Of a DNA stretch of 51,341 nt, positions 9,660 to 45,010 are shown one piece after another. The notes beneath the pieces are model-generated. The model ran no database searches. It saw only the letters and a list, made by a program, of their open reading frames with translations, and was not told where the DNA came from. The position numbers and the translations under genes were made by a program. Location: contig JAZSAX010000094.1 in assembly GCA_045602065.1 (NCBI GenBank), positions 1 to 51,341 of the forward strand, in the 5' to 3' direction. Source of the stretch: Clostridia bacterium. GTDB lineage: Bacteria; Bacillota; Clostridia; TANB77; CAG-508. Within the stretch, counting starts at the first letter, position 1; every line of letters begins with the position of its first letter.

Positions 9660-11309
9660 ATGGATTATAAAGATTTAGCAAATTTAATCTTTCCAGATGT
9701 GAAAGAAATATCATACTATGAAGAAAGATACCCTGAAAGAAATTTACCAGAAGGAGCAGTTGTAACAAGATTTGCTCCTAGCCCAACAGGGTTTGTACAT
9801 ATAGGTGGATTGTACCAAGCATTAGTTGCTAGAACAGTAGCTCAAAAAACAGGAGGAGTATTTTTCCTAAGAGTTGAAGATACAGACCAAAAAAGAGAAG
9901 TTGAAAATGGAGTAACAGGAATTGTAAATTCATTAAAAGATTTTGATATGGCACCAGATGAAGGAATGATTACTGATACAGAAGAAATCGGAAATTATGG
10001 ACCATTTAAACAAAGTTTAAGAAAAGAAATATATCAAGCATATGCGAAATATATGATAGAACAAGGCAAAGCATATCCATGTTTCTGTACACCTGAAGAT
10101 GGTGAAGAAATTCGTCAAAAACAAGAAGCGGCAAAAATAAGACCTGGATATTATGGCGTATGGGCAAAATGTAGAAATCATACAGTTGAAGAAATGGTTG
10201 AAAGAATTAAAAATGGAGAAAATTATATAATAAGATTTAAATCACCTGGCAGAGAAGATAGAAAGATCAAACACAAAGATGTAATCAAAGGAAATGTTGA
10301 ATTCCCAGAGAACGATTTAGATATAGTTATAATAAAAGCTGATGGATTGCCAACATATCACTTTGCACATGCAGTTGATGATCATTTAATGAGAACAACA
10401 CATGTAATAAGAAGTGATGAGTGGTTATCATCAGTTCCATTACATTTACAACTATTCCAAGAATTAGGATTTAAAGCCCCTAAATATGCACATATTTCAC
10501 CAATTATGAAAAATGACAATGGTGGAAAACGTAAATTAAGTAAAAGAAAAGATCCAGAAGCGGCAGTAGAATATTACAAAAAAGAAGGAATTCCTTCAGA
10601 TGCAGTTAAAGAATATTTATTAAATATAGCAAACTCTACATTTGAAAATTGGAGAAGAGCAAATCCAGATGCAAAAATGGAAGAATTCGATTTCCAATTA
10701 AACAAAATGAGTGTAAGTGGAGCATTATTTGATATGGTAAAATTACTAGACATTGGTAAAACAGTAATTTCAAAAATGACTGCTGAACAAGTTTATGAAA
10801 AAACACTAGAATGGGCAAAAGAATTTGATGCAGAATTAGCAGAAATGTTAGCTGATAAAGAATATGCACTAAAAGTATTTGGTATTGAAAGAGGAAATAA
10901 AAAACCTAGAAAAGATATTGCAAAATGGTCAGATGTCAAAGAAAATATTGAATATATGTATGATGATAAATTCTATGGAAAAGCTCAAGAATATCCATAT
11001 CAAGTAATATCAGAAAAAGAAGATTTGGAAAAAATATTTAAATTATATATTGAAAAATATTATGATGAAAATGATGACAAACAAACTTGGTTTGACAAAA
11101 TTAAAGCTTTAGCAGTTGAAATGGGATATGCTGGAGAAGTTAAAGAATTTAAAGCAAATCCAGACATGTACAAAGCACATGTTGGAGATGTAAGTACAGC
11201 AATTAGAGTTGCCTTAACATCTAGAACAAATACACCAGATATGTATGAGATAATGCAAGTTTTAGGAAAAGATGCAGTTGCTAAGAGATTAGAAAAGGCA
11301 ATAGGGTAA
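9660..11309 (+). CDS. gltX: Glutamate--tRNA ligase (long, about 550-aa form)
   Basis: Class I motifs are present: RFAPSPTGFVHIGG (HIGH-type) and KLSKRK (KMSKS-type), plus VEDTDQKR. Confidence 0.93.
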   Translation: MDYKDLANLIFPDVKEISYYEERYPERNLPEGAVVTRFAPSPTGFVHIGGLYQALVARTVAQKTGGVFFLRVEDTDQKREVENGVTGIVNSLKDFDMAPDEGMITDTEEIGNYGPFKQSLRKEIYQAYAKYMIEQGKAYPCFCTPEDGEEIRQKQEAAKIRPGYYGVWAKCRNHTVEEMVERIKNGENYIIRFKSPGREDRKIKHKDVIKGNVEFPENDLDIVIIKADGLPTYHFAHAVDDHLMRTTHVIRSDEWLSSVPLHLQLFQELGFKAPKYAHISPIMKNDNGGKRKLSKRKDPEAAVEYYKKEGIPSDAVKEYLLNIANSTFENWRRANPDAKMEEFDFQLNKMSVSGALFDMVKLLDIGKTVISKMTAEQVYEKTLEWAKEFDAELAEMLADKEYALKVFGIERGNKKPRKDIAKWSDVKENIEYMYDDKFYGKAQEYPYQVISEKEDLEKIFKLYIEKYYDENDDKQTWFDKIKALAVEMGYAGEVKEFKANPDMYKAHVGDVSTAIRVALTSRTNTPDMYEIMQVLGKDAVAKRLEKAIG

Positions 11310-11527: not shown

Positions 11528-11577
11528 AATAGGGGAGGGTCCTTTTTTTCGCGAAAAAAAGGACCGTCCCTATTTTT
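11527..11577. repeat. Inverted pair of the GGACCGTCCC / A7 / CGCG repeat unit forming a >20-bp hairpin (dispersed family, copy B); acts as a terminator
   Basis: AAAATAGGGGAGGGTCCTTTTTTT-CGCG-AAAAAAAGGACCGTCCCTATTTT uses the same unit as 3957-4008 and 32589-32643, but here in head-to-head orientation. Confidence 0.8.
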
Positions 11578-11580
11578 ACA

Positions 11581-11620
11581 ATGTAACAAAAAAGTAATGG
11601 AAATGTAATAAAAATGTAAT
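11581..11620 (+). promoter_or_regulatory. Four direct heptamer repeats (ATGTAAC, AAGTAAT, ATGTAAT, ATGTAAT) with exact 11-bp phasing
   Basis: Repeat starts are at 11581, 11592, 11603 and 11614. The array is upstream of the Big_2 surface protein gene (ATG 11739). The same array type is at 19739-19756 and 41580-41619. Confidence 0.6.
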
Positions 11621-11738
11621 AAAGCACCAATACGCTGAAAACAGACACATAGACCGATTAGTGAAATAAAAAGAGGTTGTCTTTGAAATAAAAAAATGTT
11701 ATTCTAAAATAGGAAATATTGTAAAAAGGAGAAGAAAA

Positions 11739-13367
11739 ATGAAACTAAATAATAACAAAAAAATATTTATTATAACATTAATGGCAATACTTTTTATAAT
11801 TATATTTAATGTGAAAGTATATGCAGAAAATGAGCCATTTACATTATCTGCAGAGAGTAAAGAAGTACGCTTAAATGGTACAACTTACCTTTACTATACT
11901 GGAGGCGATTATAGTGAAAAAGTAACATGGTCAAGTAGTGATGAGAGTGTAGCAACTGTAGATGGTGGAAAAATAACAGGTCTAAAAATAGGAACAACTA
12001 CAATAACAGCTACTAGAGGAAATGAAACTGATTCTTGTGAAGTTAACGTAGTATATTCATTGATTCAAATTGGTGGAAATTCGAGCAATAATATAACTTC
12101 AGTAAATTTAGTATTAAATGAACATGATACTGAAAATTTATATGCAACAGTAGAAGATGATGATTACGTAGAAGTTCAAAACGCAGAAGTAAAATGGGAG
12201 AGCAGTAATCCAAGCATAGTTACAGTTAATGAAAATACAGGAACTATTACAGCGGTTAGTGCAGGAACAGCTACAATAACTGCATCAGCAGCAGGTGTAT
12301 CTGACACTTGTAATGTAACAGTTGTAAATGGACCAAAATTCACAGACTTTTCTAATGCAAAATATGAATTACTTTATGACTTTGAGGTAGATTTGAAAAT
12401 TGCAGATGTTAATCCAAATGATGAAAATAGTTACTACTATATAATAACTTCTAGTAATACAAAGCCAGAAATATCAACAACTTCATACGGAGCACTTGAT
12501 ACAGAGAAGGTAACAGATGCTACTTACTTAAGTGTTAATATAGAGGACAATTATATATATGCAAGAAATTTAGATAGATATGCAGAACTAAATCAAGATT
12601 TATATTTATGGGTAATTGAAGATATTAGATTAGAGGCTTCATATGCTAAAGATGAAGAAAATAATATTTCACATTCTACAAAATTTGTAGTAGAAGGAGA
12701 AAAATTAACAAGGCCAGAATTGCCACAATTAAACTTAATATTACAGACAATTAACATTGGACACTGGGCAAATGATACAACTGGTGAAAATTCTAATTAT
12801 ACTTATATAAATTTTAATTTTCCAACAGAACAGGAAAATAGAAAGTTTACATTAAAAATAGGTAAAGTTACAGATATTAATATATTAACAAAAATTCAAA
12901 ACAATGATTATTCTGGAATAACAGAACTATTGTCTTATGCAAAAAATAATGAAGCAGTGTTTTCAAAAACATTAACAACAACAAGTGCAGCATATTTTAG
13001 AAGTGATGATACTTTATTTGACGGAAATGCCTTGTTAGAAGATGATGCATATTATTTTATTTATGCACAATTTGATGATGAAAATGGTAAATATTATCCA
13101 ATAGAAGGTGTTACTTTAGGACAAGCTTGGAAATCAAATAGTGATTCAAACTGGTGGGACTTATGGGCTTATACTTCAGATAACTTTGATTGGAATAACT
13201 TAAAACCATCTAATACTCCTACCGAGCCAAAACCTGAAGATCCAACAGTAGCACCATCAGTAATACCAAATGCGGGAAATAAAACTGTAATTGCTATGGT
13301 AGCATTTGTTGCAATAGTTAGTGTAATACTATATAAAAAATACAACAAATTTAGTGATATAAAATAA
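11739..13367 (+). CDS. Secreted/surface protein with two N-terminal Big_2 (bacterial Ig-like group 2) domains and a C-terminal IPNAG-TM-YKKY anchor module
   Basis: It has a signal peptide (MKLNNNKKIFIITLMAILFIIIFNVKVYA) and Big_2 signatures (VTWSSSDESVATVDGGKITGLKIGTTTITAT; VKWESSNPSIVTVNENTGTITAVSAGTATITA). The C-terminal 34 aa are IPNAG, a hydrophobic stretch, then YKKYNKFSDIK. Confidence 0.85.
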   Translation: MKLNNNKKIFIITLMAILFIIIFNVKVYAENEPFTLSAESKEVRLNGTTYLYYTGGDYSEKVTWSSSDESVATVDGGKITGLKIGTTTITATRGNETDSCEVNVVYSLIQIGGNSSNNITSVNLVLNEHDTENLYATVEDDDYVEVQNAEVKWESSNPSIVTVNENTGTITAVSAGTATITASAAGVSDTCNVTVVNGPKFTDFSNAKYELLYDFEVDLKIADVNPNDENSYYYIITSSNTKPEISTTSYGALDTEKVTDATYLSVNIEDNYIYARNLDRYAELNQDLYLWVIEDIRLEASYAKDEENNISHSTKFVVEGEKLTRPELPQLNLILQTINIGHWANDTTGENSNYTYINFNFPTEQENRKFTLKIGKVTDINILTKIQNNDYSGITELLSYAKNNEAVFSKTLTTTSAAYFRSDDTLFDGNALLEDDAYYFIYAQFDDENGKYYPIEGVTLGQAWKSNSDSNWWDLWAYTSDNFDWNNLKPSNTPTEPKPEDPTVAPSVIPNAGNKTVIAMVAFVAIVSVILYKKYNKFSDIK

Positions 13368-13382
13368 TAAAAAATGAGGAAT

Positions 13383-41231: not shown

Positions 41232-41507
41232 ATGAACAAAGCTGAATTAGTAGCAGCTATCGCTGCAAAAACAGGTGATTCAAAAAAAGCAACAGAAGCA
41301 TTAGTTAATGCATTCACAGGAGTTGTAGCAGAAGCATTAGCAGGAGGAGACAAAGTTCAATTAGTTGGATTTGGTTCTTTCGAAGTTAGAAAAAGAGCTG
41401 CTAGAAAAGGTAGAAATCCTCAAACAAAAGAAGAAATCAAAATACCTGCATCTAAAGCTCCAGTATTCAAAGCTGGTAAAGCATTAAAAGATTTAGTAAA
41501 CGGATAA
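41232..41507 (+). CDS. hup: DNA-binding protein HU
   Basis: [18 protein letters not shown].....V.AF......[46 protein letters not shown]. Confidence 0.96.
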
Positions 41508-41533
41508 TTATAAAAAATATATAAATATATGAT

Positions 41534-41563
41534 AGAGCTAGAGCAATCTAGCTCTTTTTTTTG
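41534..41563 (+). terminator. hup terminator; 25/26 identical to the terminator at 44927-44952
   Basis: AGAGCTAGA-GCAA-TCTAGCTCT plus T8. Confidence 0.8.
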
Positions 41564-41579
41564 TCGGAAAACAATATAA

Positions 41580-41619
41580 AAGTAATTAAAATGTAATATA
41601 AATGTAACTGAATTGTAAT
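41580..41619 (+). promoter_or_regulatory. Four direct heptamers (AAGTAAT, ATGTAAT, ATGTAAC, TTGTAAT) with exact 11-bp phasing, abutting an extended -10
   Basis: Repeat starts are at 41580, 41591, 41602 and 41613. The last repeat ends 10 nt upstream of the TATTAT hexamer (41630-35) within TGgTATTAT (41627-35). No separate -35 is present. Confidence 0.65.
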
Positions 41620-41684
41620 GAAAAAATGGTATTATTTATATATAAAAAGAATTATAAAAAGAATTATAAAAAGGGAGATTAACT

Positions 41685-44600
41685 ATGAAAAAGTTTTTGA
41701 AAAAACAAATTGTAATAATAGCATTAATAATGTTTTTTATTTTGCCGATAATTACTATCGCAAATAGTGAAACATATTTAGAATTAGTGCCTAAAAAATC
41801 AGCTTCATATGAACAATGGGAGAAATTAGACAAAGAGGAAAAAAACACAATAATTCCACCAACATATATTGATATAAATTTTAAAGATAGCATAAAAAGA
41901 TCAAAATATAATCAATATATACTAAAAAGTGAAGAGGAAGGAACTTCTTCATACAATTTAAAAACGGAATTGGCTAAAAGTAATATAGGTATATATGTAA
42001 AAAATCAACAACAAACAGGATCTTGTTGGGCATTCTCGTTTTCAAATATGATAGAGACAACAATTGCAAATAAATTTAAAAGAACAGTAAAAGAATATTC
42101 TCCAATGCATATAGATTATATGGCAGGGGCGTTATATAATAGAATAGTAGGTGATGGAGGAAACTATTTAATGGCATTAGCTTACGGGACATCTGGTTTG
42201 GGACCTGTATATGAAGAGGATTTTTCTTTTGAGAGTGTTTATGATGAAGTCGAAAATAGTTCACAACCATATTTCTTAACTAATATTAGTAATGTGCAAT
42301 TAGATAAAGAAGCAAAAGCTAGAATAAAAGATGCAACTATATTTGCGCCAATATATAAAAGTTATTCAACAAATTCTATAACATATAAAGATAGTAGTGC
42401 GTGGATAGGATATAATGAATATGAACCAGAAGAAGTTCAAGCGCTAAGACTACTGGTAAAAGAACATATAAAAGAAAACGGAGCAATTACAGCTATGATG
42501 TATACAAATAGTGGCAATATAACAAGTATGTACAATAGTACTACAAAAGCATTTTTTAATAATAGTAGTTTTTCTAATCCGGATCATGCTGTAACAATAG
42601 TAGGATGGGATGATACTTTCCCAAAAGAGAATTTTTTGGAAGGCAAAAGACCTATAAATGATGGTGCATATATAGTACTAAATTCTTGGGGAGAAGAATT
42701 TGGAGATTCAGGGTATTTCTATATATCTTATGATGATGCTGTTATAGAGCAAGATTTATGTGGAATTGTTGATATATCTGAAAAAGAAGATGAAGAAGAC
42801 TCTTATGACAATATATACGCATATGATGAATTGGGTGCAAATTACTCGGTGTATGTAATAAATGATGAGGGAACCCAATATTTAGATAGCGGATATGCTG
42901 CAAGTGTTTTTTCAAGAGAATCTAAACAATCAACTGAATATTTATCAGAAATTGGAATATTCTTATTTAGTGCACATGGAATAGAAATATACGTAAATCC
43001 TAATGATGGTAAATTAGAAGATTGTGAATTGGTTGCTACATTTACAGCTACACAAGCATTAGAAGGTGGATACCATTCATTAAAATTATCATCTCCGATA
43101 CAATTAACTGGTGACAATTTTGCAATTAAAATAAAATATATAAACTCAACAAGAACAGAAATACCGCTAGAATATAATGGTTATGCTAGTGGTTCGGCTG
43201 AGGAGGATGATCCTTATGCTACAGCAACAGCATCTCCAAATGAAAGTTTCATTTCTTTTAATGGCACAGTATGGTCTGACTTAGATGACTATAGTAAAAC
43301 GTATTATGCGGGAACTAGTGACGAGACAACTATTGTATTAAAAGATACAAGTGCATGTATCAAAGCCTTTACAACATTAAGTGAAGGAACAACAACGGTG
43401 CCAGTAACAGGAGTAACATTAGATAAAGAAACAGTAACAATAAAAGAAGAAGAAACAGAAACATTAGTAGCAACAGTAACGCCAGAAAATGCAACAAATC
43501 AAAATATAACATGGTCAAGTAATAATCAAAGTGTAGCAACAGTAGCAAATGGAGTAGTAACAGGAGTATCAGAAGGAACAGCAACAATAACAGTAACAAC
43601 ACAAGATGGAAACTTTACAGATACATGTGTTGTAACAGTAGAAGAAAAAGTTGTAACACCACCAACAGTAGCAGTAACAGGGGTGACATTAAATAAAGAA
43701 ACAGTAACAATAAAAGAAGAAGGAACAACAACATTAGTAGCAACAGTAATGCCAGAAAACGCAACAAATCAAAATGTAACATGGTCAAGTAGTGATAATA
43801 CAATAGCAACAGTAGAAAATGGCGTAGTAACAGGAGTATCAGCAGGAACAGCAACAATAACAGTAACAACACAAGATGGAAGCTTTACAGATACATGTGT
43901 TGTAACAGTAGAAGAAAAAGTTGCAACACCAACAACAGTAGCAGTAACAGGAGTAACACTAAATAAAGAAACAGTAACAATAAAAGAAGAAGAAACAACA
44001 ACACTAGTAGCAACAGTAACGCCAGAAAATGCAACAAACCAAAATGTAACATGGTCAAGTAGTGCTGAAAGTGTAGCAACAGTAGCAAATGGAGTAGTAA
44101 CAGGAGTATCAGAAGGAACAGCAACAATAACAGTAACAACACAAGATGGAAACTTTACAGATACATGTGTTGTAACAGTAGAAGAAAAAGTTGTAACACC
44201 AACAACAGTGCCAGTAACAGGAGTAACATTAGATAAAGAAACAGTAACAGTAAAAGAAGAAGAAACAGAAACATTAGTAGCAACAGTAATGCCAGAAAAT
44301 GCAACAAACAAAAATATAACATGGTCAAGTAATAATGAAAGTGTAGCAACAGTGGCAAATGGAGTAGTAACAGGATTATCAGCAGGAACAGCAACAATAA
44401 CAGTAACAACACAAGATGGAAGTTTCACAGATACATGTGTTGTGACAGTAGAAGAAGCAGTTTTATCAGTAAAAGTAACAGGAATTGAACTTGATAAAAC
44501 AGAATTAAAAATGCAAGTTAGTGAAAAAACAAATTTAGTGGCAACAATAAAGCCAACAAATGCAACAAATAAAGAGGTAGTATGGACAAGTTCAAATACA

Positions 44601-44912
44601 GATGTTGCTACAATATCAGAAAATGGTATAATAGAAGCATTAAAAACAGGGAAAACAACCATAACAGTAACAACAAAAGATGGAAATTATAAAGCAACTT
44701 GTAAAATAACTGTTTCAGAAAAAACAAACAATGATGATGATATTTATGCAGAAAAAGAACCAGGAAAAATTGAAGAAGGTAAAGATACAACAATCATTGA
44801 TGGAAATATTCCAAATGCAGGATTACAAACTCTTATGATGGTATTAATTATAGTTGCAATAATAGTATTTGTAACATATAAAAAGTATAAAACATTTGAA
44901 GATATAAAATAA
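41685..44912 (+). CDS. Secreted papain-family (C1) cysteine peptidase fused to five Big_2 repeats and a C-terminal IPNAG-TM-YKKY anchor module
   Basis: It has a signal peptide. Catalytic motifs are QQQTGSCWAFS (Cys), DHAVTIVGWDD (His) and NSWGEEFGDSGYFYISY (Asn). Five Big_2 units follow (VTGVTL.KETVT...ATNQNVTWSS...ATV.NGVVTGVS.GTATITVTT). The C-terminal 34 aa are IPNAG, a hydrophobic stretch, then YKKYKTFEDIK. Confidence 0.88.
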   Translation: MKKFLKKQIVIIALIMFFILPIITIANSETYLELVPKKSASYEQWEKLDKEEKNTIIPPTYIDINFKDSIKRSKYNQYILKSEEEGTSSYNLKTELAKSNIGIYVKNQQQTGSCWAFSFSNMIETTIANKFKRTVKEYSPMHIDYMAGALYNRIVGDGGNYLMALAYGTSGLGPVYEEDFSFESVYDEVENSSQPYFLTNISNVQLDKEAKARIKDATIFAPIYKSYSTNSITYKDSSAWIGYNEYEPEEVQALRLLVKEHIKENGAITAMMYTNSGNITSMYNSTTKAFFNNSSFSNPDHAVTIVGWDDTFPKENFLEGKRPINDGAYIVLNSWGEEFGDSGYFYISYDDAVIEQDLCGIVDISEKEDEEDSYDNIYAYDELGANYSVYVINDEGTQYLDSGYAASVFSRESKQSTEYLSEIGIFLFSAHGIEIYVNPNDGKLEDCELVATFTATQALEGGYHSLKLSSPIQLTGDNFAIKIKYINSTRTEIPLEYNGYASGSAEEDDPYATATASPNESFISFNGTVWSDLDDYSKTYYAGTSDETTIVLKDTSACIKAFTTLSEGTTTVPVTGVTLDKETVTIKEEETETLVATVTPENATNQNITWSSNNQSVATVANGVVTGVSEGTATITVTTQDGNFTDTCVVTVEEKVVTPPTVAVTGVTLNKETVTIKEEGTTTLVATVMPENATNQNVTWSSSDNTIATVENGVVTGVSAGTATITVTTQDGSFTDTCVVTVEEKVATPTTVAVTGVTLNKETVTIKEEETTTLVATVTPENATNQNVTWSSSAESVATVANGVVTGVSEGTATITVTTQDGNFTDTCVVTVEEKVVTPTTVPVTGVTLDKETVTVKEEETETLVATVMPENATNKNITWSSNNESVATVANGVVTGLSAGTATITVTTQDGSFTDTCVVTVEEAVLSVKVTGIELDKTELKMQVSEKTNLVATIKPTNATNKEVVWTSSNTDVATISENGIIEALKTGKTTITVTTKDGNYKATCKITVSEKTNNDDDIYAEKEPGKIEEGKDTTIIDGNIPNAGLQTLMMVLIIVAIIVFVTYKKYKTFEDIK
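43398..44477 (+). repeat. Four in-frame tandem 270-nt (90-aa) near-identical Big_2 repeat units; a fifth diverged unit follows to about 44720
   Basis: GTGCCAGTAACAGGAGTAACATTAGATAAAGAAACAGTAACA occurs at 43398 and again at 44208, which is 3 x 270 nt apart. The units start at 43398, 43668, 43938 and 44208. Confidence 0.9.
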
Positions 44913-44926
44913 TAAAACTAAATTAA

Positions 44927-44952
44927 GGAGCTAGAGGAATCTAGCTCTTTTT
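44927..44952 (+). terminator. Terminator of the C1/Big_2 gene, near-duplicate of the hup terminator
   Basis: GGAGCTAGA-GGAA-TCTAGCTCT plus T6. Confidence 0.8.
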
Positions 44953-45010
44953 TATTCACATAATTAATCTCCAAGAATATAATATAATAAAAATATTGGA
45001 GGAAATCATA

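Follow-up and report, generated by a model that had tools for sequence, protein, structure and literature searches.

Three short arrays of TGTAAY-type hexamers, repeated at an exact 11-bp period, lie upstream of genes for secreted or surface proteins in the window, that is, in the whole stretch of 51,341 nucleotides analysed here. They can be best explained as binding sites of a response regulator of the OmpR/PhoB family, most likely of the WalR (YycF/VicR) orthologue, a reading to which we assign a probability of roughly 60%. An earlier note on this DNA had recognized the arrays and their placement before three genes for secreted or surface proteins, both of which hold up, and had proposed an undescribed regulon. 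The latter proposal is not borne out, as half-site and spacing are those of the published WalR/VicR consensus and one of the targets is a GH73 autolysin, which most likely makes this a further case of a regulon already known. The arrays amount to a well-supported prediction of a regulatory site and do not represent a new kind of element.

The source of the window is an uncultured Clostridia bacterium that forms spores and has a G+C content of 30%; the window contains the sporulation genes spoIIAA-AB-sigF, spoIID and bofA. Its intergenic DNA amounts to 5.3 kb at 28% G+C. The earlier note had placed the regulator gene outside the window, and neither annotation nor synteny indeed revealed a response regulator gene in these 51 kb. 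Related contigs from public metagenome assemblies (labelled L plus a number) provide the material for comparison. The relatives' loci for footprinting were obtained by exact-protein look-ups in these assemblies, since a scan of reference-genome contigs with peptidase A, the product of gene A, yielded distant homologs alone (best 36% identity). An exact look-up of the 1075-aa peptidase A itself gave no record.

Composition and phasing of the repeat units

The three arrays, numbered by their position in the window, are the following.

41581 to 41619, + strand: array A, four hexamers at an 11-bp period (AGTAAT 41581-86, TGTAAT 41592-97, TGTAAC 41603-08, TGTAAT 41614-19)
11582 to 11620, + strand: array B, TGTAAC, AGTAAT, TGTAAT and TGTAAT at an 11-bp period
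19740 to 19756, + strand: array C, TGTAAT-ATAAA-TGTAAT, an exact match to the WalR consensus, 20 nt upstream of a -35 element

Read as the heptamers of the earlier note, the arrays span 41580-41619, 11581-11620 (four units) and 19739-19756 (two units), each at the exact 11-bp period, and TRF calls period-11 arrays at sites A, B and C. The phase of the heptamer unit stands, but its register does not. A profile of 30 repeat units, collected in the window and at independent related loci, places the information in TGTAAY and in an A at the next position. This A directly follows the hexamer in 24 of the 30 units; on so AT-rich a background, it can be no more than supportive. The first base of the heptamer carries 0.24 bit, which is near-zero information. 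Spacers are A-rich at fixed positions of the profile and vary between units, whereas the hexamers do not.

The phased pair WWGTAAY-N4-WWGTAAY occurs seven times in the window against 0.13 expected from whole-window shuffles; in intergenic DNA alone, the same seven stand against about 0.01-0.05. First-order Markov simulations of the intergenic DNA give an expectation of 0.013, and none of 2000 reaches seven phased pairs, a count far above the rate in random AT-rich intergenic DNA. Each of the seven matches is intergenic and reads on the + strand, where it directly follows a terminator and precedes a + strand gene. A relaxed motif with one mismatch displays no enrichment (38 matches against 34 expected), indicating that the signal is confined to exact, phased arrays. 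Separately, coding regions show an excess of GTAAY spacings of 21, 30 and 36 nt, on the + strand only, which presumably reflects the repetition of Big_2 modules within gene A and has no relation to the 11-bp arrays.

Functionless arrays, arisen by recent 11-bp tandem duplication or by chance, would find a favorable background in intergenic DNA of such AT content, in a window with many short low-score TRF repeats and with a clearly neutral 12-nt duplication adjoining array A. Against this, the observed count is never reached in the simulations, the hexamer is common to three unrelated loci, and it is conserved both in orthologs of 71-91% identity and in six diverged veg promoters; 62 of 80 triple-hexamer loci among the metagenome matches listed are intergenic. 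Simple tandem duplication was rejected, as the hexamers are kept while the spacers differ between units and as orthologs conserve the hexamers. Simulations, GH73 footprints and veg promoters together effectively refute the chance reading.

Agreement with WalR sites

The WalR/YycF/VicR consensus TGTWAH-N5-TGTWAH is known from B. subtilis, S. aureus and S. mutans (PMC9210968, PMC4168254), and the refined VicR site of S. mutans reads TGTWAHA-N4-TGTWAHA (PMC4168254). The 30-unit profile, TGTAAY followed by A, equals this refined form. Exact matches to TGTWAH-N5-TGTWAH begin in the window at 11604, 19740, 41592 and 41603, and one-mismatch pairs complete the arrays around them; in array A, the second and third and the third and fourth hexamers form exact pairs, and the first and second a pair with one mismatch. 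These four exact matches in 5.3 kb of intergenic DNA compare with only 29 in all intergenic DNA of the C. difficile genome, which has a similar G+C content (PMC9210968). Judged by sequence, the element qualifies as a WalR box array.

Hexamer, 5-nt spacer, direct-repeat orientation and the A at position 7 are identical to those of WalR boxes, and the two have in common the use of either orientation, a variable distance to the promoter and, among their targets, an autolysin and surface proteins anchored to the wall. Two-box promoters likewise exist for WalR (lytE, isaA, ssaA). WalRK is present in all Firmicutes (PMC9210968), and cell-wall hydrolases occur in every WalR regulon examined (PMC7299342). 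Such a hydrolase is the target at site C; sites A and B agree in part, their targets being LPXTG-like surface proteins of the envelope.

Several points speak against WalR. Canonical sites have two hexamers, whereas the arrays here are contiguous and contain up to four, and those at clostridial veg genes three to six; two of the three targets in the window are accessory sortase-type surface proteins rather than hydrolases. The C. difficile WalR sites are themselves predictions. The veg and nrdD genes, which carry like arrays in other Clostridia, are not classic targets, and the reverse complement of the hexamer resembles the PhoP box of B. subtilis. Beyond PMC9210968, a literature search yielded nothing on TGTAAT repeats in Clostridium or on the binding of WalR in Clostridia.

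The closest known case is C. difficile cd630_27680, a sortase-anchored NlpC/P60 hydrolase that is repressed about 4-fold on WalR overexpression (PMC9210968). It has two predicted TGTAAT-N5-TGTAAT sites about 100 nt upstream (PMC9210968 Table S4) and resembles gene A in that it encodes, in a clostridial genome of low G+C, a papain-fold cysteine peptidase with a sortase anchor, which for protein A is probable. It differs in that its sites are reversed, that it is repressed in Wal-ON cells, and that the enzyme is of the NlpC/P60 and not the C1 type. Predicted WalR sites are also present at C. difficile cwp2 and dltD.

The attribution of the direct-repeat, 11-bp layout to the OmpR/PhoB family, already made in the earlier note, is supported, and the layout is generic to this family (PMC6222199, PMC3798270). 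GTAAY-like half-sites are common to several of its members. In C. difficile, the OmpR-family regulator RR_1586 uses the 11-bp layout with the half-site DRTTAAG (PMC6222199); it shares the layout but not the half-site, which indicates that the half-site discriminates between regulators. RR_1586 was rejected as a candidate here, its DRTTAAGNWWW repeats having a half-site unlike TGTAAY. Most sites of E. coli ArcA consist of three to five direct repeats with 11 bp from center to center (PMC3798270), showing that the family's regulators are able to work with arrays that exceed a single dimer site; organism, half-site and physiology are different for ArcA, which is mostly a repressor.

Another family member might read the arrays, either PhoP on the opposite strand (ATTACA against TT[A/T/C]ACA) or a paralogue with a WalR-like recognition helix, in which case the surface-protein, veg and nrdD genes would form a regulon apart from that of WalR. 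Apart from the generic layout, this is favored by the overlap of the consensuses: those of PhoB and WalR have been called very similar (PMC4168254), and scans of S. epidermidis with the WalR consensus pick up pstS and phnD in reverse (PMC5405149). The arrays at veg and nrdD in other Clostridia, with C. difficile nrdD not responding to WalR, point in the same direction. Nevertheless, we regard another regulator as rather unlikely. None of the targets is phosphate-related, the coding strand reads TGTAAY in the WalR orientation at all three sites of the window, and the GH73 autolysin belongs to the hallmark targets of WalR. In the literature searched, no other Firmicute regulator has a TGTAAY half-site.

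Under the WalR reading, one winged-helix domain of the phosphorylated regulator would contact each TGTAAY(A) hexamer, with head-to-tail dimers on hexamer pairs one helical turn apart. Two hexamers would thereby accommodate one dimer, and four would accommodate two. The likely sign of regulation depends on position. In S. aureus, ChIP-seq data indicate that WalR sites upstream of the -35 element activate, whereas those located in the -35/-10 interval or further downstream repress (PMC10746227).

Site C and the autolysin operon

Array C lies upstream of a complete promoter.

19777 to 19806, + strand: promoter of the autolysin operon, TTGACT-18-TGaTATACT, conserved in all orthologs
19830 to 21590, + strand: gene C, with signal peptide, GH73 N-acetylglucosaminidase (autolysin), SH3_3 and dockerin
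21638 to 23287: gene with a cadherin-like domain, downstream of gene C

Structure matches of the gene C product comprise PDB entries 5wqw, 6fxo, 6fxp and 4pi7 (E 1e-11 to 1e-16) and a SagB model, in line with its resemblance to the solved autolysins Acp, Atl, AtlE and SagB. Its true start is likely GTG 19857, not the ATG 19830 of the ORF caller: this codon is in frame, is preceded by the RBS GAGGTG and aligns to the ATG of the orthologs. The pair of gene C and the cadherin-like-domain gene is conserved across the lineage, and the two probably share an operon. The dockerin of gene C is of type I and is borne by a peptidoglycan hydrolase, which suggests cohesin-mediated surface display of the autolysin; no cohesin partner is visible in the window.

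Footprinting at this site is the most informative. In GH73 orthologs with 71-91% protein identity and two upstream contexts, TGTAAY-N5-TGTAAT is kept exactly 20 nt from the -35 element. The hexamers and TTGACT-18-TGaTATACT are invariant (alignment A1), while the spacer, the flanks and everything upstream diverge. Similar to the prediction for gene B below, a dimer bound upstream of this complete promoter would activate the operon during active wall growth; activation follows from the S. aureus position rule for both.

A GTCT block 4-7 nt upstream of the -35 element (19768-19776) is likewise invariant in all GH73 promoters of alignment A1 and is out of phase with the hexamers.

Site A and the peptidase gene

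At site A, the array would take the place of a -35 element.

41534 to 41562, + strand: intrinsic terminator of hup (41232-41507), directly upstream of array A
41627 to 41635, + strand: extended -10 element TGgTATTAT, with 10 nt between the last repeat and TATTAT
41641 to 41673, + strand: 12-nt perfect tandem repeat TATAAAAAGAAT, 2.8 copies, 100% identical (TRF)
41685 to 44912, + strand: gene A, 1075 aa, with signal peptide, C1 papain-like peptidase, lectin-like domain and five Big_2 domains

The heptamers AAGTAAT, ATGTAAT, ATGTAAC and TTGTAAT begin at 41580, 41591, 41602 and 41613; reading the sequence confirms their 11-nt steps and the 10 nt before TATTAT. No -35 element is found at 16-18 nt from this -10, and a sigma-70 scan gives no + strand -35/-10 pair, in agreement with the earlier note. 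That note had the array substitute for the -35 element in general, which would hold for site A only: array C lies 20 bp upstream of a complete promoter and array B about 60 bp upstream. The extended -10 element of site A is also kept in the close relative L003.

The predicted transcription start lies near 41642, which would place the hexamers at about -61/-56, -50/-45, -39/-34 and -28/-23. PhoP is the closest paralogue of WalR, and promoters activated by B. subtilis PhoP carry four TT[A/T/C]ACA repeats on the coding strand with an 11-bp period, at about -61 to -23 and with no -35 element. Site A, with its four 11-bp-period repeats predicted to span about -60 to -20, would have this same geometry, another point in favor of a regulator other than WalR. 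The strand, however, is opposite: ATTACA/GTTACA matches TTHACA at five of six positions, whereas the WalR match is exact, and gene content of the Pho type is absent here. A PhoP box of the B. subtilis type was rejected, as the coding strand reads TGTAAY.

Site A alone also resembles the E. coli Pho box of PhoB, in its 11-bp unit of conserved core and AT-rich spacer and in direct repeats that end 10 bp upstream of a -10 without a -35. The core of that box is CTGTCAT and not TGTAAY, sites B and C do not replace the -35 element, and the targets here are an autolysin and surface proteins in place of phosphate genes. An E. coli-type Pho box was accordingly rejected by sequence and targets, with a TGTAAY core and no phosphate-starvation genes.

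If WalR is the regulator, the two proximal hexamers would overlie the -35 position together with the spacer, in a promoter that has an extended -10 but no -35 element. By analogy, activation of the PhoB-like class II is modestly favored over occlusion or repression, but is not assured, since the S. aureus rule makes the same placement repressive.

The promoters of site A, site B and the peptidase gene in L057 are homologous modules (alignment A2). Within this alignment, the fourth hexamer of site A (TTGTAA) pairs with the -35 elements of site B and L057 (TTGTCT/TTGTTT), hinting that the fourth repeat may be a former -35 element brought into phase by deletions. A cryptic -35 at TTGTAA (41613-18), separated by an 18-nt spacer from TATATA (41637-42), was set aside, because the final conserved T is absent and the scan did not call it; it is kept as a weak alternative promoter for site A.

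The 12-nt repeat noticed earlier is real and lies in the predicted 5' UTR, between the predicted transcription start and the RBS GGGAG of the peptidase gene. Its suggested relation to the array is not supported, the repeat being strain-specific, with only about one copy in L003 against 2.8 in the window. Therefore, it is probably a recent slippage product that lengthens the 5' UTR and is neutral.

Gene A is accessory and sits between hup and a Clp ATPase gene, in an islet bounded at 41508-44990. Gene and array are jointly absent in L001, L002, L007, L008 and L009, where hup is followed straight by small ORFs and the Clp ATPase gene.

Site B and the shared tail of the surface proteins

Array B lies about 60 bp upstream of two candidate promoters (11677-11710).

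11677 to 11705, + strand: candidate promoter 1 of gene B, TTGTCT (11677-82)-17-TGtTATTCT (11700-05)
11683 to 11710, + strand: candidate promoter 2 of gene B, TTGAAA (11683-88)-16-TAAAAT (11705-10)
11739 to 13367, + strand: gene B, 542 aa, with signal peptide, two Big_2 domains, an unassigned domain and an IPNAG-TM-YKKY..DIK tail

The array is homologous to that upstream of the L057 peptidase gene, and its position further upstream of the promoter would make it activating for gene B. Gene B is accessory as well: together with array B it is absent at the syntenic loci in L046, L048 and L050, where DUF951 leads straight to an engB-like GTPase gene. The bounds of this islet are 11528-13380.

Proteins A and B share a C-terminal tail of IPNAG, a hydrophobic segment and YKKY..(E/S)DIK (44800-44912 and 13260-13367). 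Homologs carry LPFTG or LPYTG at the position of IPNAG, and P0121 carries IPKAG. The IPNAG tail resembles a degenerate form of the LPXTG sortase signal in which Ile replaces Leu and Ala replaces Thr, and proteins A and B are, in view of the LPFTG/LPYTG of their homologs, probably sortase-anchored wall proteins. Neither gene is a recognizable peptidoglycan hydrolase. If WalR binds the arrays, this uncultured gut lineage of Clostridia would couple an autolysin and strain-variable wall-anchored proteins to the essential system of cell-wall homeostasis.

Conservation and mobility of the arrays

Orthologous promoters point at purifying selection on the hexamers rather than on spacers and flanks, both in alignment A1 and at other loci. 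At site A, L003 keeps all four hexamers, while its flanks and one spacer differ. Homologs of the peptidase with 46-63% identity occupy four unrelated chromosomal positions, and phased hexamers are found at all four. L057 has four forward hexamers and L061 three, ending 22 nt from TGaTATAAT; in L058 and L060, the hexamers are inverted (ATTACA, 11-bp period). WalR sites function in either orientation (PMC10746227; PMC4168254 Table 1), and the inverted arrays agree with WalR for this reason. In other genomes, the peptidase cassettes follow rpoC or a hexapeptide-transferase gene, or lie within the dcw cluster. The arrays hence move with accessory genes to unrelated chromosomal positions, sometimes in inverted form, and no recombinase or transposase gene is present beside the cassettes at the loci examined.

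The inverted arrays in L058 (about 9880-9935) and L060 (about 9880-9945) end in a perfect hairpin of 11-12 bp, in which the last ATTACA unit pairs with a forward (T/A)GTAAT; a T-run follows 14-15 nt before the -35 element. It looks like a terminator built from the regulatory repeat.

Such terminator-like last units, the A-rich spacers at fixed positions and the company that arrays A and B keep with accessory genes at different loci could also reflect a structural element (phased A-tract curvature or an UP-like sequence) or the remnant of a cassette insertion mechanism. However, it is the G and T of TGTAAY that are conserved and not the A-rich spacer, and the non-mobile promoters of GH73 and veg preserve the arrays just as well, with a constant distance to the -35 element; these two observations disfavor both versions. 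In addition, the cassettes are devoid of a recombinase or transposase gene, and a position 55-60 bp upstream of the -35 element is beyond the range of UP elements. We therefore consider a structural or remnant origin very improbable.

An argument from helical phase was discarded. The last forward hexamer lies 10 nt from the -10 element at site A, 22 nt in L061 and 44 nt at site C, but 37-38 nt in L058/L060; the cases are too few and the -10 elements were chosen by ourselves.

Arrays at other clostridial loci

A metagenome scan for three phased TGTAAY hexamers gave at least 80 loci; all figures are from the matches listed, among which the array is intergenic at 62 of 80 triple-hexamer loci. We took 26 low-G+C intergenic cases from the matches listed, which also contain high-G+C contigs, a caution that half-sites like GTAAY serve several regulators of the OmpR/PhoB family. 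On at least six independent low-G+C contigs, three to six hexamers lie about 55 nt upstream of the promoter TTGACA-17-TGnTATAAT of veg (PF06257). Hexamers and promoter are invariant across the six veg loci, and the intervening DNA is variable.

L096:538-767, - strand: veg array
L114:7308-7537, - strand: veg array
L115:13774-13993, - strand: veg array
L121:1814-2032, - strand: veg array
L122:5113-5332, - strand: veg array
L124:5964-6193, + strand: veg array
L098:7443-7470: array upstream of nrdD
L101:11988-12015: array upstream of nrdD

The nrdD arrays thus occur on at least two contigs; C. difficile nrdD displays no response to WalR perturbation. Given the arrays at veg, nrdD and other loci, the element is widespread in Clostridia and not limited to surface-protein genes.

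We tentatively hypothesize that TGTAAY arrays of three to six hexamers mark a conserved clostridial regulon much broader than the textbook WalR set, comprising veg, nrdD, the GH73-dockerin autolysin and the mobile sortase-anchored cassettes, which would bring along an array of their own and at times a terminator hairpin made from it, and run either by WalR with cooperative binding of several dimers or by a WalR-like global regulator. This is possible, though we doubt it more than WalR binding itself in the window. If correct, it would be the first sequence-defined direct regulon for an essential WalR-type system in Clostridia, which would be of value because work in C. difficile found few convincing sites. 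The direct WalR regulon is poorly defined even in that species, and, should WalR bind them, multi-hexamer arrays would offer a practical handle for its prediction in Clostridia. The linkage of WalR-type arrays to mobile sortase-type surface-protein cassettes, the contiguous arrays of four to six hexamers and their recurrence at clostridial veg are mildly new.

Two further settings were observed. On at least two contigs (L076, L085), reverse-oriented arrays precede, by about 150 nt, the gene of an unannotated protein of 540 aa that begins M..CLG.Y...NIIKYAKVSK. On at least one contig (L111:1038-1065), the array is located between divergent LysM-G5 and DUF1256/YyaC-like genes.
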